From an uncultured Alphaproteobacteria bacterium (GTDB lineage: Bacteria; Pseudomonadota; Alphaproteobacteria; Rs-D84), in assembly GCA_947054455.1 (NCBI GenBank), contig CAMRWN010000002.1, positions 19,976 through 83,975 of the forward strand: DNA of 64,000 bases. Reading direction: 5' to 3'. The notes beneath the pieces were generated by a model, which did not search any database, was not told where the DNA came from, and saw nothing but the letters and a program-made list of their open reading frames with translations. Positions 7,953-21,381 of the stretch are shown in pieces (positions within the stretch are counted from its first letter, which is position 1; every line of letters starts with the position of its first letter). The translations under genes and the position numbers were made by a program.

Positions 7953-8496
7953 TCTGTTTAAAGAATTCCGCAGTTTTATTGAGCGCGGCAGCGCAATTGA
8001 TATGGCGGTCGGTATCATTGTCGGCAGTGTGATGACCAGTGTTGTTAATTCGCTGGTAAAGGATATCATTATGCCGCCGATAGGGTTGCTGATTGGCGGG
8101 GTAGATTTCTCGCAGTTGTTTATTGTTCTGGCCGGCGGCAAGGGGCAGCATTTCCCTACTGTCGAAGCGGCCCAGGCGGCCGGCGCGACAACGATGAATA
8201 TCGGCGTCTTTATGAATTCCGTGGTCAGTTTCTTGATTACTATGTTCGCCATATTCCTGTTTGTTCGCACTGTTAATAAAATGCGTTCGAAAAAGCCTGC
8301 GACAACACGCGCGTGCCCTTATTGTACCAGCGCTATTAATATTGCGGCAACAAAATGCCCGTATTGTTGTTCGGCGGTTAAACCCGTTGCACAGGAGGCT
8401 GTCGATACAGACAGTGATTTAAAGAAATCTTTGAAAGATTTAACGAAAAAGGCGACAGGGCAGATTTCGAAAATAAAAAAGATTTCAAAGCGTTAA
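7939..8496 (+). CDS. mscL: Large-conductance mechanosensitive channel MscL with a C-terminal CxxC..CxxC extension
   Basis: MscL N-terminus (FKEFRSFIERGSAIDMAVGIIVG..IIMPPIG) followed by an extra ~60 aa containing CPYC-x10-CPYCC. Overlaps the aroK end by 14 nt. Confidence 0.85.
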   Translation: MAKSNLFKEFRSFIERGSAIDMAVGIIVGSVMTSVVNSLVKDIIMPPIGLLIGGVDFSQLFIVLAGGKGQHFPTVEAAQAAGATTMNIGVFMNSVVSFLITMFAIFLFVRTVNKMRSKKPATTRACPYCTSAINIAATKCPYCCSAVKPVAQEAVDTDSDLKKSLKDLTKKATGQISKIKKISKR

Positions 8497-8526
8497 ATAC
8501 GATTAATAAGAATTTATTTTATGTTT

Positions 8527-8552
8527 AAACAGGTCGTATAGGCCTGTTTTTT
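8527..8552 (+). terminator. Rho-independent terminator after mscL
   Basis: aaacaggtc..ggcctgttt hairpin followed by a T-run. Confidence 0.6.
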
Positions 8553-8984
8553 AGTGGTGTGCAGGTGGGCGTGCGATATAGCCAGAAATCGGGCGCATTT
8601 GTATCGTATTTTTTTTTGTGTAAAGCGCGCAATAAAGGACGGGTATATATTCAGTATTTCCCGGATATTATTGTATTGTTTTTATAAAATAATTTATCAC
8701 TACGTTTGCGACGTTATGTATAGTTTTTTTGCGGGCGGGGGCTTGTTTAGATGATTTTATTGATGGGGTGTGAATGTGGTTTTTTGGGGTTTGGTTCGGG
8801 GTTAAATTGGTGCTGTAAATGATGTGTTGTGTAAATATTGGCTGGTTGGGTTGTTTTTGTTTGTTGTGGGGATGGGGGGGCTTTTTTTATACTTCTCGGG
8901 GCGGTGTTCCGGTTTGGGGTTGTGTGTTTGGATTTTTTTTGATGAAAAACTGGTGAAAAAATATCGTAAGGGTGGTATATCAAA

Positions 8985-9012
8985 AAGGCGCATAATTTAT
9001 ATTATGTATAGT
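8985..9012. other. dif-like XerC/D site (attL, host-type XerC arm)
   Basis: AAGGCGCATAA-TTTATA-TTATGTATAGT matches 21 of 28 positions of E. coli dif as I recall it (GGTGCGCATAATGTATATTATGTTAAAT). Confidence 0.8.
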
Positions 9013-9086
9013 TTACAAAGTGTGCCCTATCGGGTTAATATTTGATTTTACGATATAAATCGCAAAACCGACTTTATACAGATATA

Positions 9087-9221
9087 TTAAAGTCGTTTGT
9101 TAACTTTCCTATATCTAGTATCTTCTTTATACCATGCTCTTGCTCGAACACGAGAAAGAACGTACTCGAAAAACAAAGACAAAAACATAGCAAAAAAAAC
9201 AGAAAATAAAATCAACAACAT
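9087..9221 (-). CDS. 44-aa membrane peptide (N-terminal TM, basic tail), phage copy 1
   Basis: MLLILFSVFFAMFLSLFFEYVLSRVRARAWYKEDTRYRKVNKRL. The ATG directly follows the VP2 stop (GGAGGCAGTAAATG), with a GGAGG SD inside the VP2 end. Below the ORF-track cutoff. Confidence 0.6.
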   Translation of the reverse strand: MLLILFSVFFAMFLSLFFEYVLSRVRARAWYKEDTRYRKVNKRL

Positions 9222-10025
9222 TTACTGCCTCCATGCGCCAACAGCGGCAAGAGCCAATTCAGAAGGCGATATATAAAGCCTATCCAAATTCTGAATATCA
9301 CGACCAGTAGCACGCTTATAATCATCAGCTATCTTCATTCGTAACTGAGGACTTACAACATCACCATTAAGACCTATAGAACCATTCCTATAAGCATATT
9401 GCAAAGAAGACAAATAACCAGCATTATCAGAATCATTTTCTGTTACATCCTGATTAACCATCAATCGAGGGTCACCATTCAAGTCATATGCAATTCTAAA
9501 TAACTGAGAATCTGTACCAATAGGAGGCTGTTCGGTATTACCAGAAGGCATACCAGGCTGACGCATAATATTAAGTTCAGCCCTCATTGTATCGTTACGG
9601 ATACGCTTGGCCTCAAGGTCAAGATCCCTGCTCTCTTGCTCCTGACGATTAAAGATTTGCGAAATCCTATTAATAGCAGAAGATATCGCGCTACCTTTCT
9701 GATATCCAGCATCAGAATTGCCACCAGCACTCATGGTAGGACTAACATTTGAAGAAACACCCAAGGCGGCAAGAGGATTTATACCGGCCTTAAGGGCATC
9801 TCGAACTCGATACTGAGTCGCATTCTTCTGAAAGTCCATTTGCTCGTTAAATTGACGACGAGCCTCATGACGATTATGACGAGATTCTTTCTTACTAGAA
9901 GAAGAACCAAACAAACCACCAATTAAATCACCGACGGCACCAACACCGGCACCAATAAAAGAACCAAGTCCGGGGGAAATAGAAGTACCCAAAGTAGCAC
10001 CAGTTGCAGTTAGTTCACCTGCCAT
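9222..10025 (-). CDS. Microviridae minor capsid/DNA pilot protein (VP2/H-like), copy 1
   Basis: 267 aa with a Gly-rich N-terminus and QMDFQKNATQYRVRDALKAGINPLAALG, the conserved pilot-protein motif. Confidence 0.8.
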   Translation of the reverse strand: MAGELTATGATLGTSISPGLGSFIGAGVGAVGDLIGGLFGSSSSKKESRHNRHEARRQFNEQMDFQKNATQYRVRDALKAGINPLAALGVSSNVSPTMSAGGNSDAGYQKGSAISSAINRISQIFNRQEQESRDLDLEAKRIRNDTMRAELNIMRQPGMPSGNTEQPPIGTDSQLFRIAYDLNGDPRLMVNQDVTENDSDNAGYLSSLQYAYRNGSIGLNGDVVSPQLRMKIADDYKRATGRDIQNLDRLYISPSELALAAVGAWRQ

Positions 10026-10453
10026 TATTCACACCTTATTATTATTCCAGGGCGACGTGGTTTCTGTCCACCTTTTCCAGACTTTCCCTTAGCAAACAAC
10101 ACTTCACGACGCTCTCTACGCTGTACGCAAACTGGATGTTGCCTTGGTAAATCTACCTGAATTCTACCATACTGGCCAACAGAAATCAAGCCTATATTAT
10201 TTTGGTCCTGTACCGCCAAACGATTAGCGCGCTTTATATCCCGGCGGGACATATTAAGACGGCGCATCCTTTCGGATGGTACAGGGGGTACAAAGGGCCG
10301 TGTCGGTCGTATTTGTTCTCGACTAGACGGCCCTAATACAGACCGCAAGCCCCGTAGACGAGGGTCTACGAGAATGGACCTCGCCATTCGGGTTGCGGGA
10401 GTTGTTAATTTATCAACTCGATTTTGTCTTCTTATTCGTCTTCTCAAACTCAT
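10025..10453 (-). CDS. Arg-rich basic phage protein of unknown function, copy 1
   Basis: 142 aa starting MSLRRRIRRQNR. Its TAATG stop/start overlap with VP2 implies translational coupling. Confidence 0.6.
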   Translation of the reverse strand: MSLRRRIRRQNRVDKLTTPATRMARSILVDPRLRGLRSVLGPSSREQIRPTRPFVPPVPSERMRRLNMSRRDIKRANRLAVQDQNNIGLISVGQYGRIQVDLPRQHPVCVQRRERREVLFAKGKSGKGGQKPRRPGIIIRCE

Positions 10454-10492
10454 AACAAAATCCTGTCAATACGCACATACATAGACAAGCCA

Positions 10493-11023
10493 CTATGATG
10501 TATGTGCTCCGTCAGAAGCTTCTGGAGTATTGCTCGGCATGCCTGAGGGCTCTAAAGAGCCCGCAGGAACGGCCTCATCGGCCGATACTCCTGCTACAGG
10601 CATCAAAGGCTCTGCCGGCTTGCCGGCAGGCATTTTAGGCTCAGCAGCGGGGGATATCACTTCACCGAATTCATCTCGAACTTCGGTATTGTCCAACAGA
10701 CTATCATCATTCGGGTCCTCTTCGGGGTCATTCGTGAACATTTCGCCAAGAGCGAACTGCATCGAAGCACGGGAAGCAGACACCGCGGCGGCCAATCTAT
10801 CATAACGAGCGATACGCTCAGCAAGAGTTTCAGTCTTACGAATCCGGTCCACAAGCGGACCACGAACATGAACCTCATTACCATATTCATCCAGGTAAAT
10901 CTTGGCCTTTTCATTCCTAGACTTACTCAACGATTTTGACAAACGTTCAAATTCAGCATTTGCCAGGTCATGGCCAATATTACGAGCACGGGCCAAAATA
11001 AATGATTCTTTACTTATTTTCAT
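10493..11023 (-). CDS. Phage protein with acidic/Pro-rich C-terminus (candidate internal scaffolding protein), copy 1
   Basis: 176-aa ORF 11 nt downstream of the capsid gene. The scaffold call rests only on position and composition. Confidence 0.4.
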   Translation of the reverse strand: MKISKESFILARARNIGHDLANAEFERLSKSLSKSRNEKAKIYLDEYGNEVHVRGPLVDRIRKTETLAERIARYDRLAAAVSASRASMQFALGEMFTNDPEEDPNDDSLLDNTEVRDEFGEVISPAAEPKMPAGKPAEPLMPVAGVSADEAVPAGSLEPSGMPSNTPEASDGAHTS

Positions 11024-11034
11024 TTCATATTCCT

Positions 11035-12531
11035 TTATCTAAAACGAGGGTTACCATTCGGAGATACCATATTACGCTCGATAAACGTATTACGTATAGC
11101 CGCGGCCTCAACATGAGGCGAATTTTCCATATCATTAAAAATACGAGGTGATGGATTACACTCTAAAAAGTCAGAATTTAACTCAGGAGCAGTCGTAAAG
11201 ACTCGACCTTGATGATATACCAGGTTAGTACTTTTCATAGATCCAGACACGTCATTAAGAGAACTACGATACTCATCGTAACGGTTATAGTAACCCCAAC
11301 GCTGATTATCTTGCTCTTCATTACCAGTCGGGAACAAAATTCCTTTCTTCATTTCAGCCATACCAACATGGGCAAATTCCGGAGTATAAATATCCTCACG
11401 AACATCGAAAGCCCATTCCATAGGCTGAATATTAACATACAAGGGAGCCGGCCGGATACAAACCAAATGTATAACAGTCGATGGCTCTTCGAAGTATGTC
11501 TTATAAGAACATGAACCATAACCAGTAGCAGTTCCACCACGTTGTCCAACGTATGAACTGGTCCCGGGGGCTGTCTGCAAAACACCATTAACATCCATCA
11601 TAGAACGACCATGAGCCAAGGTTTCAGGTAACTGCAAACGACGGTCGGAATACTTAATACCTAAATATGCCAACCAATCACGAAACCTCGAACCATACAG
11701 ATTACGTTTTATCTTCCAGGCCTGTTGCGCCATCGCAAAATTAAAGTCAGAAGGCAATATGCCAGTCGATTGAGAAAGATCTGCAGTTAATCCTTCAATT
11801 ACACCAGAAGACTGAGCACTATATGAGGTTTGATTAGTAACATCACCACCAGGATTAACAAAAGAACCATTTGGTAAACCTGTAACTACTTTTAAAGAAC
11901 CTCTTGAAGTAGAAATCAAATTAGAATTACCAACAACAGGTGCAGAAGTTGCAAAAGGTATTACAACCTCATCACCAAGCTGTTCCTCGACCAAGGAAGT
12001 AGTAAAAATATCCTTGGGCCAATTCATATGCCACAACTGTGTATTAGTAACAGTATCAAGGCCAGAGGCAGTAGATACAGGCAATTTTTCCTGTATATTA
12101 GGATCTAATACATGCTCATTTATCCACATAGCATATAAACGGAACGGCAAAGCGTTACACTTAAGATTAGGAACACCAGTAGCAAAACCTAAATGGTCGG
12201 CCAAAGAACCAACAGGCCAACCGCCTTCAGCCGGGGCAAGTATATAAGGCGGAACCGGACGAGTATTACCGTCTTCACCACCTGTATAAAAATCCTCAGC
12301 ATCATCCCATAAAATACGGTCATAGCCTGATATAGCAAACGTATCAACACGCATCTGGGTCAATGATTGACGAGCCAGGGAAGCCATTTGAAAGCCACCA
12401 GCAACACCTCCTCGAACAGTAGTACCAGCTATACAATGCCTGGCCGCAGTAGGAACCAATTCGGCCATATTAAAGCTTGTAATACGAGTATTCGAACGAT
12501 TATGATTATATCTTTTTAATCGAACTACCAT
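11035..12531 (-). CDS. Microviridae major capsid protein (F/VP1), copy 1
   Basis: Motifs SFNMAELVP, LPFRLYAMWINEH, DIFTTS and GSRFRDWLAYLGIKYSDRRLQLPETL. Start set at ATG 12531 (GGAGAAAAAAAAGATG) rather than the ORF-track start at 12582. Confidence 0.95.
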   Translation of the reverse strand: MVVRLKRYNHNRSNTRITSFNMAELVPTAARHCIAGTTVRGGVAGGFQMASLARQSLTQMRVDTFAISGYDRILWDDAEDFYTGGEDGNTRPVPPYILAPAEGGWPVGSLADHLGFATGVPNLKCNALPFRLYAMWINEHVLDPNIQEKLPVSTASGLDTVTNTQLWHMNWPKDIFTTSLVEEQLGDEVVIPFATSAPVVGNSNLISTSRGSLKVVTGLPNGSFVNPGGDVTNQTSYSAQSSGVIEGLTADLSQSTGILPSDFNFAMAQQAWKIKRNLYGSRFRDWLAYLGIKYSDRRLQLPETLAHGRSMMDVNGVLQTAPGTSSYVGQRGGTATGYGSCSYKTYFEEPSTVIHLVCIRPAPLYVNIQPMEWAFDVREDIYTPEFAHVGMAEMKKGILFPTGNEEQDNQRWGYYNRYDEYRSSLNDVSGSMKSTNLVYHQGRVFTTAPELNSDFLECNPSPRIFNDMENSPHVEAAAIRNTFIERNMVSPNGNPRFR

Positions 12532-12615
12532 CTTTTTTTTCTCCAAAATTAAAAAACAATTGACGATAAACCATATAATCATATATGGTCATCTGCTTAT
12601 ATTCTCGATTTTTCA

Positions 12616-12702
12616 TCAATTAAAACCAAAAAAAGCACCAACGGCACCAACAATAGCACCAACAATTCCCCAGGCAAATTTTACCCATTTCATAGTATTC
12701 AT
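12616..12702 (-). CDS. 28-aa glycine-zipper hydrophobic peptide, copy 1
   Basis: MNTMKWVKFAWGIVGAIVGAVGAFFGFN. GGAGG lies 6 nt upstream and the ATG overlaps the Rep stop (TTATGA). Below the ORF-track cutoff. Confidence 0.6.
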   Translation of the reverse strand: MNTMKWVKFAWGIVGAIVGAVGAFFGFN

Positions 12703-13568
12703 AAATACCTCCTATGTCTTAATTTATCAGATTTTTTATCAAGTTTTTCGCGCTCTTGCCATTTCGGCCGAAGAATATCAGAAATTTCTTTCCAACTTAA
12801 CGGCACGCACGACACAGTTTCGCGAATCTTCTCTTTAACCAGAAAATCCTTGAACCTCTTCTGGTCGCTGAATTCTTGTTGTTCTTCCTCATTATATAAT
12901 TTCCAAATATTACGAAGCTTATCGCGAATATACCGAGGCAAACGAATCCATTTACCACCAATACGAACGCTAAACGGAGGATAAGCATAATTCAAAACAC
13001 GCTCACGAAATGACTCATCAGTAGCGAATTTCTCAAGTATATCATAAAGTAAACCATACCCTAAGGCAGGTTTCCTCGATGCCAAGAAAAATTCAGGTGT
13101 GCGACCGTCAAGACGAACATCACCTGATTTAGTCATTTTCTTTGTAACATAGCCAGATATATAATCACAACGACCATAAGTCATGTGGTCTATATCGACA
13201 TTACCAAAACGCCAAGCCTTACGTAATGCATCAAAGCAATCACTATCGGCAAAGACAGCAACATGATAATGTGCACGCTCTGTATCATCACCATATTCAC
13301 CAACTAAAAAAGTCCGGGGAGTATAGCCAAGAAAATATTCAAGACGTTTTTTGAACTTTTTAGCAGTTTCCTTGGACAAACAACCATCGGCCGGATAAAA
13401 CTCCGGGGAGTAAGTCAATCCAACGAAATAATTATAATTATGGTAACGCATTTCTATTTTAAGCCTATCGGCCCACTCTTTCTTCTTATTCTTCAAACAA
13501 CCTGGACACTTACCGCAAGAAGTGAAACCAAGTGAACTTGAATAATTTGGATTTGTACAATAAGCCAT
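12699..13568 (-). CDS. Microviridae replication initiator (HUH endonuclease, VP4/A-like), copy 1
   Basis: Motifs FVGLTYSP, HYHVAVF (HUH) and YISGYVTKK. The likely start is ATG 13568 (MAYCTNP). The ORF-track GTG start at 13691 lies inside the dif-like site. Confidence 0.9.
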   Translation of the reverse strand: MAYCTNPNYSSSLGFTSCGKCPGCLKNKKKEWADRLKIEMRYHNYNYFVGLTYSPEFYPADGCLSKETAKKFKKRLEYFLGYTPRTFLVGEYGDDTERAHYHVAVFADSDCFDALRKAWRFGNVDIDHMTYGRCDYISGYVTKKMTKSGDVRLDGRTPEFFLASRKPALGYGLLYDILEKFATDESFRERVLNYAYPPFSVRIGGKWIRLPRYIRDKLRNIWKLYNEEEQQEFSDQKRFKDFLVKEKIRETVSCVPLSWKEISDILRPKWQEREKLDKKSDKLRHRRYL

Positions 13569-13657
13569 TAATACGTACGCGCACGACGACGGTACAAGCG
13601 GCGTGCACCAGTACGCATACGCAAACGACGACGTAAACGATAACGACGAAATCTCAT
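13568..13657 (-). CDS. 29-aa Arg-rich DNA-binding protein (J/VP8-like), copy 1
   Basis: MRFRRYRLRRRLRMRTGARRLYRRRARTY has 15 Arg in 29 aa. An AGGAG lies upstream, and the stop overlaps the Rep ATG (TAATG). Below the ORF-track cutoff. Confidence 0.65.
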   Translation of the reverse strand: MRFRRYRLRRRLRMRTGARRLYRRRARTY

Positions 13658-13682
13658 GCCCTACTCCTATATATAGATGGAT

Positions 13683-13710
13683 AAGGCGCACTATTTATAT
13701 TATGTATAGT
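13683..13710. other. dif-like site between the two phage copies (phage-type attP)
   Basis: AAGGCGCACTA-TTTATA-TTATGTATAGT differs from the 8985 site only at positions 9-10 (TA to CT). Confidence 0.8.
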
Positions 13711-13784
13711 TTACAAAGTGTGCCCTATCGGGTTAATATTTGATTTTACGATATAAATCGCAAAACCGACTTTATACAGATATA

Positions 13785-13919
13785 TTAAAGTCGTTTGTTA
13801 ACTTTCCTATATCTAGTATCTTCTTTATACCATGCTCTTGCTCGAACACGAGAAAGAACGTACTCGAAAAACAAAGACAAAAACATAGCAAAAAAAACAG
13901 AAAATAAAATCAACAACAT
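13785..13919 (-). CDS. 44-aa membrane peptide, phage copy 2
   Basis: Matches 9087-9221 at +4698 (the tracked flanking ORFs are identical). Confidence 0.6.
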   Translation of the reverse strand: MLLILFSVFFAMFLSLFFEYVLSRVRARAWYKEDTRYRKVNKRL

Positions 13920-14723
13920 TTACTGCCTCCATGCGCCAACAGCGGCAAGAGCCAATTCAGAAGGCGATATATAAAGCCTATCCAAATTCTGAATATCACG
14001 ACCAGTAGCACGCTTATAATCATCAGCTATCTTCATTCGTAACTGAGGACTTACAACATCACCATTAAGACCTATAGAACCATTCCTATAAGCATATTGC
14101 AAAGAAGACAAATAACCAGCATTATCAGAATCATTTTCTGTTACATCCTGATTAACCATCAATCGAGGGTCACCATTCAAGTCATATGCAATTCTAAATA
14201 ACTGAGAATCTGTACCAATAGGAGGCTGTTCGGTATTACCAGAAGGCATACCAGGCTGACGCATAATATTAAGTTCAGCCCTCATTGTATCGTTACGGAT
14301 ACGCTTGGCCTCAAGGTCAAGATCCCTGCTCTCTTGCTCCTGACGATTAAAGATTTGCGAAATCCTATTAATAGCAGAAGATATCGCGCTACCTTTCTGA
14401 TATCCAGCATCAGAATTGCCACCAGCACTCATGGTAGGACTAACATTTGAAGAAACACCCAAGGCGGCAAGAGGATTTATACCGGCCTTAAGGGCATCTC
14501 GAACTCGATACTGAGTCGCATTCTTCTGAAAGTCCATTTGCTCGTTAAATTGACGACGAGCCTCATGACGATTATGACGAGATTCTTTCTTACTAGAAGA
14601 AGAACCAAACAAACCACCAATTAAATCACCGACGGCACCAACACCGGCACCAATAAAAGAACCAAGTCCGGGGGAAATAGAAGTACCCAAAGTAGCACCA
14701 GTTGCAGTTAGTTCACCTGCCAT
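13920..14723 (-). CDS. Microviridae pilot protein (VP2/H-like), copy 2
   Basis: Translation identical to 9222-10025. Confidence 0.8.
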   Translation of the reverse strand: MAGELTATGATLGTSISPGLGSFIGAGVGAVGDLIGGLFGSSSSKKESRHNRHEARRQFNEQMDFQKNATQYRVRDALKAGINPLAALGVSSNVSPTMSAGGNSDAGYQKGSAISSAINRISQIFNRQEQESRDLDLEAKRIRNDTMRAELNIMRQPGMPSGNTEQPPIGTDSQLFRIAYDLNGDPRLMVNQDVTENDSDNAGYLSSLQYAYRNGSIGLNGDVVSPQLRMKIADDYKRATGRDIQNLDRLYISPSELALAAVGAWRQ

Positions 14724-15151
14724 TATTCACACCTTATTATTATTCCAGGGCGACGTGGTTTCTGTCCACCTTTTCCAGACTTTCCCTTAGCAAACAACAC
14801 TTCACGACGCTCTCTACGCTGTACGCAAACTGGATGTTGCCTTGGTAAATCTACCTGAATTCTACCATACTGGCCAACAGAAATCAAGCCTATATTATTT
14901 TGGTCCTGTACCGCCAAACGATTAGCGCGCTTTATATCCCGGCGGGACATATTAAGACGGCGCATCCTTTCGGATGGTACAGGGGGTACAAAGGGCCGTG
15001 TCGGTCGTATTTGTTCTCGACTAGACGGCCCTAATACAGACCGCAAGCCCCGTAGACGAGGGTCTACGAGAATGGACCTCGCCATTCGGGTTGCGGGAGT
15101 TGTTAATTTATCAACTCGATTTTGTCTTCTTATTCGTCTTCTCAAACTCAT
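14723..15151 (-). CDS. Arg-rich basic phage protein, copy 2
   Basis: Translation identical to 10025-10453. Confidence 0.6.
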   Translation of the reverse strand: MSLRRRIRRQNRVDKLTTPATRMARSILVDPRLRGLRSVLGPSSREQIRPTRPFVPPVPSERMRRLNMSRRDIKRANRLAVQDQNNIGLISVGQYGRIQVDLPRQHPVCVQRRERREVLFAKGKSGKGGQKPRRPGIIIRCE

Positions 15152-15190
15152 AACAAAATCCTGTCAATACGCACATACATAGACAAGCCA

Positions 15191-15721
15191 CTATGATGTA
15201 TGTGCTCCGTCAGAAGCTTCTGGAGTATTGCTCGGCATGCCTGAGGGCTCTAAAGAGCCCGCAGGAACGGCCTCATCGGCCGATACTCCTGCTACAGGCA
15301 TCAAAGGCTCTGCCGGCTTGCCGGCAGGCATTTTAGGCTCAGCAGCGGGGGATATCACTTCACCGAATTCATCTCGAACTTCGGTATTGTCCAACAGACT
15401 ATCATCATTCGGGTCCTCTTCGGGGTCATTCGTGAACATTTCGCCAAGAGCGAACTGCATCGAAGCACGGGAAGCAGACACCGCGGCGGCCAATCTATCA
15501 TAACGAGCGATACGCTCAGCAAGAGTTTCAGTCTTACGAATCCGGTCCACAAGCGGACCACGAACATGAACCTCATTACCATATTCATCCAGGTAAATCT
15601 TGGCCTTTTCATTCCTAGACTTACTCAACGATTTTGACAAACGTTCAAATTCAGCATTTGCCAGGTCATGGCCAATATTACGAGCACGGGCCAAAATAAA
15701 TGATTCTTTACTTATTTTCAT
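15191..15721 (-). CDS. Candidate internal scaffolding protein, copy 2
   Basis: Translation identical to 10493-11023. Confidence 0.4.
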   Translation of the reverse strand: MKISKESFILARARNIGHDLANAEFERLSKSLSKSRNEKAKIYLDEYGNEVHVRGPLVDRIRKTETLAERIARYDRLAAAVSASRASMQFALGEMFTNDPEEDPNDDSLLDNTEVRDEFGEVISPAAEPKMPAGKPAEPLMPVAGVSADEAVPAGSLEPSGMPSNTPEASDGAHTS

Positions 15722-15732
15722 TTCATATTCCT

Positions 15733-17229
15733 TTATCTAAAACGAGGGTTACCATTCGGAGATACCATATTACGCTCGATAAACGTATTACGTATAGCCG
15801 CGGCCTCAACATGAGGCGAATTTTCCATATCATTAAAAATACGAGGTGATGGATTACACTCTAAAAAGTCAGAATTTAACTCAGGAGCAGTCGTAAAGAC
15901 TCGACCTTGATGATATACCAGGTTAGTACTTTTCATAGATCCAGACACGTCATTAAGAGAACTACGATACTCATCGTAACGGTTATAGTAACCCCAACGC
16001 TGATTATCTTGCTCTTCATTACCAGTCGGGAACAAAATTCCTTTCTTCATTTCAGCCATACCAACATGGGCAAATTCCGGAGTATAAATATCCTCACGAA
16101 CATCGAAAGCCCATTCCATAGGCTGAATATTAACATACAAGGGAGCCGGCCGGATACAAACCAAATGTATAACAGTCGATGGCTCTTCGAAGTATGTCTT
16201 ATAAGAACATGAACCATAACCAGTAGCAGTTCCACCACGTTGTCCAACGTATGAACTGGTCCCGGGGGCTGTCTGCAAAACACCATTAACATCCATCATA
16301 GAACGACCATGAGCCAAGGTTTCAGGTAACTGCAAACGACGGTCGGAATACTTAATACCTAAATATGCCAACCAATCACGAAACCTCGAACCATACAGAT
16401 TACGTTTTATCTTCCAGGCCTGTTGCGCCATCGCAAAATTAAAGTCAGAAGGCAATATGCCAGTCGATTGAGAAAGATCTGCAGTTAATCCTTCAATTAC
16501 ACCAGAAGACTGAGCACTATATGAGGTTTGATTAGTAACATCACCACCAGGATTAACAAAAGAACCATTTGGTAAACCTGTAACTACTTTTAAAGAACCT
16601 CTTGAAGTAGAAATCAAATTAGAATTACCAACAACAGGTGCAGAAGTTGCAAAAGGTATTACAACCTCATCACCAAGCTGTTCCTCGACCAAGGAAGTAG
16701 TAAAAATATCCTTGGGCCAATTCATATGCCACAACTGTGTATTAGTAACAGTATCAAGGCCAGAGGCAGTAGATACAGGCAATTTTTCCTGTATATTAGG
16801 ATCTAATACATGCTCATTTATCCACATAGCATATAAACGGAACGGCAAAGCGTTACACTTAAGATTAGGAACACCAGTAGCAAAACCTAAATGGTCGGCC
16901 AAAGAACCAACAGGCCAACCGCCTTCAGCCGGGGCAAGTATATAAGGCGGAACCGGACGAGTATTACCGTCTTCACCACCTGTATAAAAATCCTCAGCAT
17001 CATCCCATAAAATACGGTCATAGCCTGATATAGCAAACGTATCAACACGCATCTGGGTCAATGATTGACGAGCCAGGGAAGCCATTTGAAAGCCACCAGC
17101 AACACCTCCTCGAACAGTAGTACCAGCTATACAATGCCTGGCCGCAGTAGGAACCAATTCGGCCATATTAAAGCTTGTAATACGAGTATTCGAACGATTA
17201 TGATTATATCTTTTTAATCGAACTACCAT
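15733..17229 (-). CDS. Microviridae major capsid protein (F/VP1), copy 2
   Basis: Translation identical to 11035-12531. Confidence 0.95.
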   Translation of the reverse strand: MVVRLKRYNHNRSNTRITSFNMAELVPTAARHCIAGTTVRGGVAGGFQMASLARQSLTQMRVDTFAISGYDRILWDDAEDFYTGGEDGNTRPVPPYILAPAEGGWPVGSLADHLGFATGVPNLKCNALPFRLYAMWINEHVLDPNIQEKLPVSTASGLDTVTNTQLWHMNWPKDIFTTSLVEEQLGDEVVIPFATSAPVVGNSNLISTSRGSLKVVTGLPNGSFVNPGGDVTNQTSYSAQSSGVIEGLTADLSQSTGILPSDFNFAMAQQAWKIKRNLYGSRFRDWLAYLGIKYSDRRLQLPETLAHGRSMMDVNGVLQTAPGTSSYVGQRGGTATGYGSCSYKTYFEEPSTVIHLVCIRPAPLYVNIQPMEWAFDVREDIYTPEFAHVGMAEMKKGILFPTGNEEQDNQRWGYYNRYDEYRSSLNDVSGSMKSTNLVYHQGRVFTTAPELNSDFLECNPSPRIFNDMENSPHVEAAAIRNTFIERNMVSPNGNPRFR

Positions 17230-17313
17230 CTTTTTTTTCTCCAAAATTAAAAAACAATTGACGATAAACCATATAATCATATATGGTCATCTGCTTATAT
17301 TCTCGATTTTTCA

Positions 17314-17400
17314 TCAATTAAAACCAAAAAAAGCACCAACGGCACCAACAATAGCACCAACAATTCCCCAGGCAAATTTTACCCATTTCATAGTATTCAT
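17314..17400 (-). CDS. 28-aa glycine-zipper hydrophobic peptide, copy 2
   Basis: Matches 12616-12702 at +4698. Confidence 0.6.
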   Translation of the reverse strand: MNTMKWVKFAWGIVGAIVGAVGAFFGFN

Positions 17401-18266
17401 AAATACCTCCTATGTCTTAATTTATCAGATTTTTTATCAAGTTTTTCGCGCTCTTGCCATTTCGGCCGAAGAATATCAGAAATTTCTTTCCAACTTAACG
17501 GCACGCACGACACAGTTTCGCGAATCTTCTCTTTAACCAGAAAATCCTTGAACCTCTTCTGGTCGCTGAATTCTTGTTGTTCTTCCTCATTATATAATTT
17601 CCAAATATTACGAAGCTTATCGCGAATATACCGAGGCAAACGAATCCATTTACCACCAATACGAACGCTAAACGGAGGATAAGCATAATTCAAAACACGC
17701 TCACGAAATGACTCATCAGTAGCGAATTTCTCAAGTATATCATAAAGTAAACCATACCCTAAGGCAGGTTTCCTCGATGCCAAGAAAAATTCAGGTGTGC
17801 GACCGTCAAGACGAACATCACCTGATTTAGTCATTTTCTTTGTAACATAGCCAGATATATAATCACAACGACCATAAGTCATGTGGTCTATATCGACATT
17901 ACCAAAACGCCAAGCCTTACGTAATGCATCAAAGCAATCACTATCGGCAAAGACAGCAACATGATAATGTGCACGCTCTGTATCATCACCATATTCACCA
18001 ACTAAAAAAGTCCGGGGAGTATAGCCAAGAAAATATTCAAGACGTTTTTTGAACTTTTTAGCAGTTTCCTTGGACAAACAACCATCGGCCGGATAAAACT
18101 CCGGGGAGTAAGTCAATCCAACGAAATAATTATAATTATGGTAACGCATTTCTATTTTAAGCCTATCGGCCCACTCTTTCTTCTTATTCTTCAAACAACC
18201 TGGACACTTACCGCAAGAAGTGAAACCAAGTGAACTTGAATAATTTGGATTTGTACAATAAGCCAT
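17397..18266 (-). CDS. Microviridae replication initiator (VP4/A-like), copy 2
   Basis: Translation identical to 12699-13568. Confidence 0.9.
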   Translation of the reverse strand: MAYCTNPNYSSSLGFTSCGKCPGCLKNKKKEWADRLKIEMRYHNYNYFVGLTYSPEFYPADGCLSKETAKKFKKRLEYFLGYTPRTFLVGEYGDDTERAHYHVAVFADSDCFDALRKAWRFGNVDIDHMTYGRCDYISGYVTKKMTKSGDVRLDGRTPEFFLASRKPALGYGLLYDILEKFATDESFRERVLNYAYPPFSVRIGGKWIRLPRYIRDKLRNIWKLYNEEEQQEFSDQKRFKDFLVKEKIRETVSCVPLSWKEISDILRPKWQEREKLDKKSDKLRHRRYL

Positions 18267-18355
18267 TAATACGTACGCGCACGACGACGGTACAAGCGGC
18301 GTGCACCAGTACGCATACGCAAACGACGACGTAAACGATAACGACGAAATCTCAT
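18266..18355 (-). CDS. 29-aa Arg-rich J/VP8-like protein, copy 2
   Basis: Matches 13568-13657 at +4698. Confidence 0.65.
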   Translation of the reverse strand: MRFRRYRLRRRLRMRTGARRLYRRRARTY

Positions 18356-18380
18356 GCCCTACTCCTATATATAGATGGAT

Positions 18381-18408
18381 AAGGCGCACTATTTATATTA
18401 TGTATAGT
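18381..18408. other. dif-like site (attR, phage-type XerC arm)
   Basis: Same 28-mer as 13683-13710. Identity to the phage ends at 18410, after which host flank begins (tgtgttctgg). Confidence 0.8.
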
Positions 18409-18978
18409 TTTGTGTTCTGGTGGGCGCGAAAATGGCTATTTGTGTATATTTGTATGACTTTAATAAATCGTGTGCGTGGGACTAATTGATTGCTATCTTT
18501 TTATGAGAGTTTATAACGATAAAATGTGTATAAAAATATCTGTTAGTTTTATTATGAAAAAAGTTAATAAATTATTTTTAATAATTAAAATAATTTGTTG
18601 AATATATGAATATAATTTAATTTATCTGTTCGTGTTAAACATACTCATGGTTTATGCTGTTTTTATTATATTTGATGCATATTTGGCATCTGTTATACGT
18701 TTTTGTGTTTTATCATGATTATTTTGTTGCGTGATTATGTGAAAATATGTGGATATCGTCTTGATTTTGGCGGATTTTAATGGATTTTTCGTAAAATAAG
18801 CCGTAAAAACCGTGAAAAACCGCAGAAATCCGGGATTTTTTGCGTTTTTTAATATGTTTTTTACAAATTTTGTGCTTAATTTACCTGATTTGCTGCGGTT
18901 TGCCCTATAAAATACTTGAATTTGATTGGTGCAACGGCTAAAATTTTAACTGTTTAAATTAAAATTTTACCATAGGCG

Positions 18979-21381
18979 ATGAAAATGGCAGACAACATCA
19001 AAAAAATTCACGAGCGCGAAGCAAAATGGCAGCAGCGCTGGGCCCAGTCGGGCGTGTTTACGCCAAAAAACGACGGCAGCAAGCCGAAATACTATAATTT
19101 GATAGAATTCCCCTTCCCCAGCGGTTCCGGATTGCATGTTGGTCATATGCTGCCGTATACGGGGATGGACGTGCTGGCTCGTTTTCGTCGTATGCAGGGT
19201 TATGATGTTCTGTTTCCAATCGGATACGATTCCATGGGCATTTCATCAGAAAAGTACGCCACCAAGATTGGCAAGCATCCCAGCGAGTCGGTCGCGGAAC
19301 TGATAAAGATTTTTGAACGCGACATATCAATTATGGGGCTGTCGTTCGACGAGAATTCAAAGTTGGCGACATCCGACCCGGATTTTATAAAGTGGACACA
19401 ATGGATGTTTATACAGTTTTTCAAGGCGGGACTGGCGTATAAATCCGAACTGCCGATGAACTGGTGTCCGAACTGCCGCACCAATCTTACAAACGAAGAA
19501 CTGGAAGATGGCAAATGCGAACGCTGCCATGGGCCGGTTGAAAAGAGGATGAAGCTGCAGTGGAATTTGGCGATTACCAAGTACGCCGACCGTCTGATTG
19601 ATGATTTGTCGCTGGTGGATTATCCGTCGCGCGTCAAAACCGAACAGATAAACTGGATTGGGCGTTCGCATGGCGCGGACATCGACTTTATGGTTGGTGA
19701 TGACAAGATGACGATTTATACGACGCGTCCGGACACGATATTTGGTGCGACATTCTGTGTTATCGCGCCCGAGCATGCGCTTGTTAAAAAATGGCTGGAT
19801 GAGGGGCGTATTGAAAATGCCGACCATGTGCGTGAATACATTGCGGCCGCGCGCGCCAAAACAGAAATAGAACGTACCGACGCAACCAAGGAAAAAACGG
19901 GTGTGGAACTGCGCGGGATTCGTGCGACAAACCCGTTCAGCGGTGCGCAGATTCCTGTTTTTGTGGCGGATTATGTATTGGCGGATTACGGATTTGGCGC
20001 GATTATGGCGGTGCCGGCGCATGACGGCCGCGACTGGGATTTTGCGAAAAAATTTGGTCTGGATATAATTCCGGTTTTGGCCGGCGGGCGCCCGGACCAG
20101 GTGTGGGAAGGCGACGGCACGCACATAAATTCAGGATTTCTGGACGGCATGGACAAGGCCGATGCAATAGATGCCGCGATAAAGTTTGGCGCACAGCACG
20201 GTTTCGCACGCGGCACCACGAAGTATAAGTTAAAAGATTGGGGGTTTTCGCGTCAGATGTACTGGGGCGAACCGATCCCGCTGGTCTATTGCGAAAAATG
20301 CGGATGGGTTCCGGTTCCTGACGACCAGCTGCCGCTGATGCAGCCGTATATGTCTGACTACAGACCGACGGATGACGGGGAAAGCCCGCTGGCACGTGCG
20401 ACGGAATGGGTAAATACAACCTGCCCCCATTGCGGCGGTGCGGCCCGTCGCGAGACGGATACAATGCCGCAGTGGGCCGGTTCTTCGTGGTATTTTATGC
20501 GCTATCTGGATTCTAAAAATGATAATGAATTCTGCAATCGCGCCCAGTTGGAAAAATGGATGCCTGTCGACCATTACAACGGCGGGATGGAACATACCAC
20601 GCGCCATCTGCTGTATTCACGTTTTTGGTACAAGGCACTGTACGATTTGGGGTATGTCCCCGGTGTTGAACCGTATGTCAAGCGCACCAGCAGCGGCCTG
20701 CTGATGGCGGCGGACGGTACAAAGATGTCAAAATCGCGCGGAAACACCGTCCCCAGTTCCGATGTTGTTGAACGCAGCGGCGCAGACGCATGCCGTCTGA
20801 CGATTTTGTATCTGGGGCCGTGGGAGCAAAATGTAAACTGGTCCGAGGACACGCTGCGCGGTGTTGAACGCTTTTTGCGCCGGATTGAGAACATGGCGGA
20901 CAATTTGACCGATGATGCGATGACGACCGAACAGGAACGTTTGGTGCATCAGTTGATTGCGGACATGACCGAGCGTATTGCGGAAATGCGTCTGAATACC
21001 GCGATTTCTGCGATGATGGAATATCTGAACGCGTTTTCGGGCAAAATGCCCCGCCCCGCATATGAAACATTGCTGCAGATGTTGAACCCGTTCGCGCCCC
21101 ATTTGACCGAAGAAATCTGGGAAAAATTGGGGCATTCGGAAATGCTGGTGTTTCATCCGTGGCCCGCGTATGACGCGTCCAAGCTTTCCCGTGCGGAAAT
21201 GACGATTGTTGCATCCGTAAACGGCAAGCGCGCAGCTGATTTCAGCATGCCGGTTGGCGCCGCAGAGGCTGATATTATCGCTGCGGCCCGCACGGCGGCA
21301 GCGGCCAAGTTGGCCGGGGCCGAGATAATTAAAACAATTGTCGTTCCCAATAAATTGGTGAACTTTGTGGTGAAAAAGTAA
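18979..21381 (+). CDS. leuS: Leucine--tRNA ligase
   Basis: 800 aa with HVGH (HIGH-type) and KMSKS motifs and a CP1 editing-domain-sized insertion. Confidence 0.93.
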   Translation: MKMADNIKKIHEREAKWQQRWAQSGVFTPKNDGSKPKYYNLIEFPFPSGSGLHVGHMLPYTGMDVLARFRRMQGYDVLFPIGYDSMGISSEKYATKIGKHPSESVAELIKIFERDISIMGLSFDENSKLATSDPDFIKWTQWMFIQFFKAGLAYKSELPMNWCPNCRTNLTNEELEDGKCERCHGPVEKRMKLQWNLAITKYADRLIDDLSLVDYPSRVKTEQINWIGRSHGADIDFMVGDDKMTIYTTRPDTIFGATFCVIAPEHALVKKWLDEGRIENADHVREYIAAARAKTEIERTDATKEKTGVELRGIRATNPFSGAQIPVFVADYVLADYGFGAIMAVPAHDGRDWDFAKKFGLDIIPVLAGGRPDQVWEGDGTHINSGFLDGMDKADAIDAAIKFGAQHGFARGTTKYKLKDWGFSRQMYWGEPIPLVYCEKCGWVPVPDDQLPLMQPYMSDYRPTDDGESPLARATEWVNTTCPHCGGAARRETDTMPQWAGSSWYFMRYLDSKNDNEFCNRAQLEKWMPVDHYNGGMEHTTRHLLYSRFWYKALYDLGYVPGVEPYVKRTSSGLLMAADGTKMSKSRGNTVPSSDVVERSGADACRLTILYLGPWEQNVNWSEDTLRGVERFLRRIENMADNLTDDAMTTEQERLVHQLIADMTERIAEMRLNTAISAMMEYLNAFSGKMPRPAYETLLQMLNPFAPHLTEEIWEKLGHSEMLVFHPWPAYDASKLSRAEMTIVASVNGKRAADFSMPVGAAEADIIAAARTAAAAKLAGAEIIKTIVVPNKLVNFVVKK

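Follow-up and report, generated by a model that had tools for sequence, protein, structure and literature searches.

Positions 8985-18410 of the window (the whole 64,000-nucleotide stretch of DNA that was analysed) are taken up by a small microvirus in two copies of 4,698 bp each, 100% identical and arranged head to tail. When the window is compared with itself at an offset of 4698 bp, identity extends over 8985-13712 with two mismatches only, at 8993/8994; the units span 8985-13682 and 13683-18380 and are followed by a third copy of the 30-nt core at 18381-18410. The coding features of the array, with the evidence for each in brackets, are:

9087-13657, minus strand: coding part of the left copy (ORF list, Pfam, PHROGs)
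9087-9221, minus strand: 44-aa hydrophobic ORF, left copy (ORF list)
9222-10025, minus strand: pilot protein (phrog_11693, 1.6e-14)
10025-10453, minus strand: 142-aa basic ORF without assignment
10493-11023, minus strand: 176-aa ORF without assignment
11035-12582, minus strand: major capsid protein VP1, F-type single jelly-roll (PF02305, 2.6e-57, 195 bits against a cut-off of 25; phrog_514, 8.7e-91)
12616-12702, minus strand: 28-aa hydrophobic ORF
12699-13568, minus strand: HUH Rep, 289 aa, superfamily I (VP4 / gpA type; PF23343, 6.8e-14; phrog_942, 1.4e-56)
13568-13657, minus strand: J-like ORF, 29 aa including 13 Arg (ORF list)
13785-18355, minus strand: coding part of the right copy (gene set of the left copy, shifted by 4698 bp)
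13785-13919, minus strand: 44-aa hydrophobic ORF, right copy (ORF list)

The HUH Rep that the first-pass annotation had assigned to the phage is borne out by the PF23343 and phrog_942 matches and by the motifs read in its sequence, HYHVAVF and the two-tyrosine YISGYVTKK; its ATG overlaps the stop codon of the J-like gene as TAATG. Reading Rep instead as a 330-aa, GTG-started ORF that reaches attP was rejected, as the homologues begin at the same MAxCTNPNY as the 289-aa ATG start. With an F-type capsid protein, an HUH Rep, a pilot protein and a unit of 4698 bp (within the 4-6.5 kb of the Microviridae), the phage is by its gene content a microvirus, and its predicted single-stranded circular nature follows from these genes and from circular relatives of 4.6-4.9 kb. 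Searches of all eight ORFs against Pfam and PHROGs gave no match to a recombinase or integrase and no repressor-like gene.

The E. coli dif site consists of 11 + 6 + 11 nt, and this layout was used to lay out three dif-like sites in the array:

8985-9012, plus strand: attL, host-type dif 28-mer (AAGGCGCATAA TTTATA TTATGTATAGT), with XerC arm and left flank those of the host
13683-13710, plus strand: junction site, phage attP type (AAGGCGCACTA TTTATA TTATGTATAGT), with two inner XerC-arm bases unlike those of attL
18381-18408, plus strand: attR, with phage-type XerC arm and host DNA on its right

The order across the array is thus host-type (left), phage-type (junction), phage-type (right). Spacer TTTATA and XerD arm are common to all three sites; their sole sequence difference is a TA-to-CT change of the XerC-arm dinucleotide, which sets attL apart from the other two, and the cores of the junction site and attR are identical at 30/30 positions. 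Accordingly, the 25-mer GGCGCATAATTTATATTATGTATAG stands at 8987-9011 and its variant GGCGCACTATTTATATTATGTATAG at 13685-13709 and 18383-18407. The expectation for the 25-mer is 0 in shuffled sequence, which excludes chance, and at up to five mismatches the 728-kb assembly holds no dif-like site beyond the three in the array. With at most one mismatch, the pattern GGCGCATAA-N6-TTATGTATAG occurs once only in each of 110 out of 121 genomes from the genus, against 0 matches for the reversed control, and in one relative, G227, the left and right flanks of the window lie on either side of one empty dif, the right flank of attR (TGTGTTCTGGTGG) matching the flank of that site. Because the 25-mer is single-copy in most genomes of the genus and an empty site exists in G227, the left site is recognizable as the host's own dif. 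At odds with this, the contig has its GC-skew switch ∼85-90 kb away from the site; the strand bias of the genes on the contig was uninformative about the terminus. Each phage unit carries one dif-like site, with no second, inverted one at up to five mismatches. Another candidate, at 11088 within VP1, was rejected: it is a XerD-arm-like 12-mer in direct orientation that has no XerC arm.

Having no recombinase gene, and inserted in the host dif between direct dif-like repeats, the element shares these two features with IMEXs. As for the machinery on which such an element would draw, two XerD/XerC-like genes (∼290 and ∼230 bits) were found in 15 of 15 relatives of the same genus, and FtsK with its gamma domain in all 15 relatives tested for it, 9 of them from the same genus. 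The genes xerC, xerD and ftsK are absent from the window's own assembly, which is 86% complete at 728 kb (relatives, 0.9-1.0 Mb); xerD and ftsK lie ∼11 kb apart in relatives, so that one missing piece of the assembly would explain their absence. The window's own genome does contain recA (536.7 bits), and RecA-mediated pop-out between the 4.7-kb repeats is a route that the first-pass annotation had not listed.

Between the two coding parts lies the non-coding region 13658-13784, 127 nt long, in which the 28-nt site is preceded by 25 nt next to the J-like gene and followed by 74 nt next to the 44-aa gene; the earlier description of this region had its coordinates right but gave its flanks as 26 and 73 nt, an immaterial off-by-one. 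Its elements, and the counterparts of its two halves at the outer ends of the array, are:

13658-13682, minus strand: proximal 25-nt half, leader of the J-like gene with invariant CTATATATAGGAGT (Shine-Dalgarno GGAG; invariant alignment columns)
13711-13784, minus strand: distal 74-nt half, contiguous with attP (hairpin, box, mini-hairpin)
13723-13732, minus strand: GC mini-hairpin, CCCGATAGGG in the window and CCCGGTAGGG in most relatives
13733-13741, minus strand: box AAATATTAA (viral-strand reading TCAAATATTAAC)
13742-13767, viral strand: AT-rich hairpin of 10-12 bp (alignment/fold)
9013-9086, minus strand: distal 74-nt half at the left end, joined to host DNA via attL (identical to 13711-13784)
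18356-18380, minus strand: leader of the right copy's J-like gene, with only attR and host DNA upstream

Read on the viral strand from the 44-aa gene to J, the order is hairpin, box, mini-hairpin, a variable spacer of 10-20 nt, attP and leader. The two intergenic halves are contiguous at the junction only, attL and attR each having host DNA on one side. That the junction alone holds the complete intergenic and att region of the phage, as the first-pass annotation proposed, is upheld by the self-match and by colinear free circular relatives, and its companion claim, that integration at att splits this region, is illustrated by G229, where a lone prophage from this lineage has hairpin and box adjoining attL, and leader and J-like gene adjoining attR.

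The nearest relatives are Microvirus mar6 (MZ089752) and the bajarodmic viruses 910, 786 and 626 (PQ007160, PQ007023 and PQ006836), with VP1 proteins 55-66% identical to that of the window and one gene order common to all. They have the same intergenic hairpin, box, dif-like site and leader as the window phage; unlike it, they are free, unintegrated circular genomes, from rodent faeces and with no host assigned. Each of the four can be aligned over the full length of the junction, dif-like site included (blastn of the junction against free relatives: 81.8% identity over 130 nt, E 6e-25), which shows that the contiguous arrangement at the junction is that of the circular genome. Restoration of the attP region at the junction is an automatic property of tandem insertion, and what the junction contains is no more than an undivided phage attP plus the entire intergenic region around it.

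Within that region, alignments with the relatives show much stronger conservation in the 74-nt segment than in the adjoining sequence. The two-hairpin fold is kept in six relatives, and the stem of mar6 is completely exchanged yet fully paired, that is, the changes are compensatory; a G-T pair in four sequences makes the viral-strand fold more stable than that of the complement. The whole 133-nt junction folds no more stably than its shuffles (z -1.19), the support being for the hairpin alone, by covariation, and Rfam gave no match at E up to 1 over 8400-19000. These alignments mark the two hairpins as an element that is structural and strand-specific, and we consider it a candidate for the complementary-strand origin, the Rep origin or a packaging signal. 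The 7-mer ATATTAA in the box is also the sequence just after the nick of the phiX174 origin; PQ007160 and G229 lack it, and it serves as a lead only.

The conservation of the 74-nt segment bears also on the possibility that the region acts as an expression switch. If a promoter or read-through for the J-Rep-capsid genes came from upstream of attP, integration would silence a single prophage with no need of a repressor, and in a tandem the left copy only would regain native expression. Apart from the conserved segment, this idea finds support in the lack of a repressor-like gene and in the surroundings of the right copy, whose J-Rep genes have only attR and host DNA upstream, with leuS diverging from that end. 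Against it, a scan for sigma-70-type promoters and terminators found no viral-strand site of at least 9/12 in the junction and regional counts equal to those expected from shuffles; the distance from box to attP is not constant, with a variation of 10 nt from relative to relative; the conserved part is a compensated hairpin, which points to structure over promoter; and internal promoters may lie elsewhere in the phage. We give the switch only a slight chance of being correct. The related suggestion of the first-pass annotation, that transcription into the right copy starts from the host flank or from within the att site, stands as a logical deduction only, and the -10-like hexamers that it saw in the XerD arm had to be dropped as a promoter: they amount to an AT-rich palindrome, and the scan counts are at chance level.

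It should be noted that the tandem is read from a metagenome-type assembly, incomplete and in 4 contigs. One integrated copy accompanied by free circles or concatemers could have been unrolled into two by an assembler that walked a loop in the graph twice, and the junction being identical to the attP of a circle, junction reads cannot tell the two cases apart. The 100% identity of the copies and the several contigs of relatives that break at prophage ends fit such an event as well. Assemblers, however, usually emit a separate circular contig, and the assembly of the window has no separate circular phage contig; moreover, the array is embedded in a contig of 184 kb and displays the biologically expected pattern of host-type, phage-type and phage-type sites. 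Unrolling is very improbable in our view, and the locus is probably the point at which two copies of a temperate microvirus meet, integrated head to tail as a dimer in the host's single chromosomal dif site. Two identical copies were seen in 1 of 201 genomes sampled from the host family, the window's own, a count that includes short-read assemblies, which would collapse such repeats.

How the array arose, its dependence on Xer and every route of release are matters that we infer. For its origin, three routes can be envisaged. The second circle may have entered the host-type dif regenerated to the left of the first prophage; a dimeric replicative form may have been integrated as such; or sister chromosomes with one prophage each may have undergone an unequal Xer exchange. 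For the first of these there is precedent in CTXphi, whose insertion regenerates a dif that permits multiple tandem insertions (PMC4439123), and replicative IMEX forms in general commonly give multiple tandem insertions, a functional dif being regenerated (PMC4439123).

For release, a parallel is provided by EC6098 and the other Escherichia gokushovirus prophages, likewise integrase-less microviruses (∼4.3-4.7 kb) with a dif-like attP in a non-coding region and with one host-type and one phage-type dif motif as bounds (PMC7062461). In EC6098 the dependence of integration on XerC/XerD is experimental and integration is reversible: single prophages excise spontaneously and reintegrate continuously, and circles are detectable in lysogens, by PCR in four natural ones (PMC7062461). 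EC6098 belongs to another microvirus lineage and differs in gene order and host, that of the window being a tiny-genome gut alphaproteobacterium; in its sites the spacer and XerD arm are variable, whereas in the window phage only the XerC arm deviates from the host (PMC7062461). Similarly, the Vibrio IMEXs VGJphi and TLCphi use a single 28-29-bp, double-stranded dif-like attP, integrate reversibly and produce phage via excision and episomal replication (PMC4246890), although they are filamentous or satellite elements and depart from dif in the spacer or on the XerD side (PMC4246890).

On this basis we lean towards excision by Xer or RecA, followed by normal replication of the replicative form. 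The three sites are direct and complete, with the same spacer and XerD arm, and are separated by 4.7 kb of homology, so release by Xer and release by RecA are both possible. XerC/XerD acting between any adjacent pair of sites would set free a unit-length double-stranded circle containing the junction, and RecA recombination anywhere between the 4.7-kb perfect repeats would yield exactly the same circle. Once free, this circle would behave as a normal replicative form and be copied by Rep-driven rolling-circle replication; copying straight out of the array in the same manner would be possible but not required. A point against excision is that, with two inner bases of the XerC arm substituted, the phage-type sites could be poor recombination substrates.

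The first-pass annotation had offered rolling-circle release, by analogy with CTXphi, next to Xer excision of one unit, and the geometry of the locus would allow either. In Vibrio, CTXphi forms arrays by Xer-mediated integration of an ssDNA phage with an HUH Rep at dif, as appears to be the case here (PMC4439123, PMC4246890); dif is regenerated beside the prophage, tandems accumulate and free genomes are made by a rolling-circle-like process (PMC4439123, PMC4246890). Transferred to the window, Rep would nick the minus (viral) strand at the origin of one copy, host polymerase would displace the strand leftwards, and Rep would cleave and ligate on reaching the corresponding origin of the adjacent copy, releasing a unit-length ssDNA circle with the junction, without excision, so that the tandem would be the productive state of the prophage. 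Minus-strand synthesis that started at the right origin, crossed the junction and ended at the left origin would yield a genuine genome. Identical units in direct tandem, a Rep with both motifs, two direct origins in the array wherever the origin lies, a conserved strand-specific two-hairpin element with its box 13-57 nt from attP as candidate origin and the CTXphi precedent itself (PMC4439123, PMC4246890) all speak for this route.

The two systems differ, however, in what makes the tandem necessary. CTXphi is filamentous, whereas the window phage is an icosahedral-type microvirus, known here from its genes; CTXphi integrates as folded ssDNA with two inverted dif-like sites, irreversibly, whereas the window phage has one ordinary double-stranded attP per unit. 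Tandems are essential for CTXphi because its integration is irreversible (PMC4439123, PMC4246890), and this forcing feature, with attP masked in dsDNA, is absent here: the locus has the direct tandem and the HUH Rep of a CTXphi-type array, but neither irreversibility nor a two-inverted-site attP, all its sites being complete double-stranded dif-like sequences. Furthermore, EC6098 makes circles from single prophages (PMC7062461), and single prophages exist in related lineages, in G166, G073 and G229. The CTXphi analogy therefore holds for the tandem and the HUH Rep but not for the need of a tandem, the sites being complete and excision available, and we consider replicative release unlikely, if worth keeping in mind. 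Quite improbable, finally, is a joint scheme of copy-number-gated lysogeny, in which integration at dif would separate the J-Rep-capsid operon of this repressor-less phage from its upstream control and origin region, leaving a single prophage silent and unable to terminate a rolling circle until a second insertion rebuilt that region, the junction then switching on the left copy and allowing virion DNA to be made by rolling circle, free of excision. If true, a CTXphi-like array mechanism would for the first time be seen in an icosahedral ssDNA phage.

Prophages of microviruses at dif are known from Bacteroidetes (PMC3091885), Enterobacteriaceae (PMC7062461) and Alphaproteobacteria (PMC9753089). 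The Alpavirinae proviruses BMV1-7 of Bacteroidetes are, like the present one, integrase-less and flanked by dif-like repeats, their use of Xer being inferred; they are larger (∼6.3 kb), come from another host phylum and have sites that are only partially dif-like (PMC3091885). No tandem copies are described for BMV1-7, the word 'tandem' occurs neither in that paper (PMC3091885) nor in the one on EC6098 (PMC7062461), and among the papers in the library searched none joins 'microvirus' with 'tandem prophage'. With tandem arrays of Xer elements known from Vibrio and microviruses known at dif, it is the combination, a tandem microvirus prophage, that appears to be unreported. Nor was an identical or near-identical phage found in IMG/VR, the JGI metagenomes or the protein-position index: the exact junction 34-mer and a degenerate attP-plus-leader pattern had no match in IMG/VR and the JGI metagenomes, exact-protein look-ups of pilot protein, Rep and VP1 in the protein-position index led to no other contigs, a VP1 peptide scan of genome contigs gave no match, and a scan of IMG/VR with a VP1 alignment returned only relatives at 23-26% identity.

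The sites also tie phage to host. The rare spacer TTTATA is common to the window phage and its host, and the attP of PQ007023 and PQ006836 equals a dif variant, GGCGTATAATGTATATTATGTATAG, that is present in ∼15 genomes of the genus. Such tracking of host dif by attP suggests that full spacer homology matters, and because the attP of these rodent-faeces microviruses equals a dif of the genus, the host genus of the window is also their probable host.

In the gut, microviruses rank with the most abundant viruses, and what is known about the exit of temperate ones from the chromosome comes from a single laboratory system. The locus described here, from an uncultured gut alphaproteobacterium with a tiny genome, is a clean natural case of a microvirus prophage in tandem at dif, and it shows an attP that co-varies with the spacer of the host dif. 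The two-hairpin element beside attP is the best place to seek an origin or other cis-acting signal, and the tandem offers a simple experimental handle on Xer excision versus homologous pop-out versus rolling-circle copying.

The host genes for dif recombination, xerC and xerD, are all missing together with ftsK from the whole assembly that contains the window (G000), and all three are found in every relative tested. Because xerD and ftsK lie only ∼11 kb apart in the relatives, their absence here suggests one unassembled segment rather than gene loss. In the contig that carries the window (contig positions 19,976–83,975), the GC skew changes sign near 120 kb and dif lies at ∼29 kb, so that 85–90 kb separate dif from the apparent terminus of this genome, whose size is roughly 0.9 Mb.

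An isolated 13-nt exact match to the XerD arm and its flank (TTATGTATAGTTT) is found at window 8713–8725, ∼260 nt to the left of attL, the left dif-like site; the chance expectation for such a copy is ∼0.002 per 64 kb, no XerC arm is recognizable beside it, and it could be a relic half-site from an earlier element. On the other side of the tandem prophage pair, the region's top promoter-like match (window 18609–18638, minus strand, TTAACA-18-TATATT, 10/12) sits within host DNA ∼200 nt upstream of attR, the right dif-like site, and is directed into the right-hand copy, a match that may be due to chance.

Each prophage copy also contains two small hydrophobic ORFs, which are candidate lysis peptides:

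12616–12702 (and +4698), 28-aa hydrophobic ORF
9087–9221 (and +4698), 44-aa hydrophobic ORF

Hydrophobic ORFs occupy the equivalent position in relatives, 3′ of the pilot gene, with little conservation of sequence.

Hetero-arrays are seen in two relatives, G073 and G002. In G073 (contig C4, locus L040, 10700–10830), a second Arg-rich J-like ORF begins on the opposite strand just past the attR of a prophage with a VP1 (major capsid protein) identity of 67%, and this is where the contig stops. In G002 (contig C24, locus L064, 3394–12416), two different microvirus prophages form a head-to-head pair, arranged around inverted XerD-arm-like 12-mers at 8311–8366. An array of another kind is present in a third relative, G229 (contig C32, locus L062, 5433–5863). 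Here a related prophage in single copy is followed, immediately to the right of its attR, by 6.7 tandem copies of a 64–67-nt unit, every one of them holding an inverted XerD-arm/spacer-like motif (CGTATACATAATATA).

The dif-like site of the phage itself, attP, extends the comparison to free circular microviruses from rodent faeces. In bajarodmic viruses 786 (PQ007023, locus L005) and 626 (PQ006836, locus L006), the attP in the intergenic region reads GGCGTATAATGTATATTATGTATAG, identical to a chromosomal dif variant in ∼15 genomes of the window's host genus. This attP/dif identity provides a probable host assignment for PQ007023 and PQ006836, viruses that were deposited without a host.
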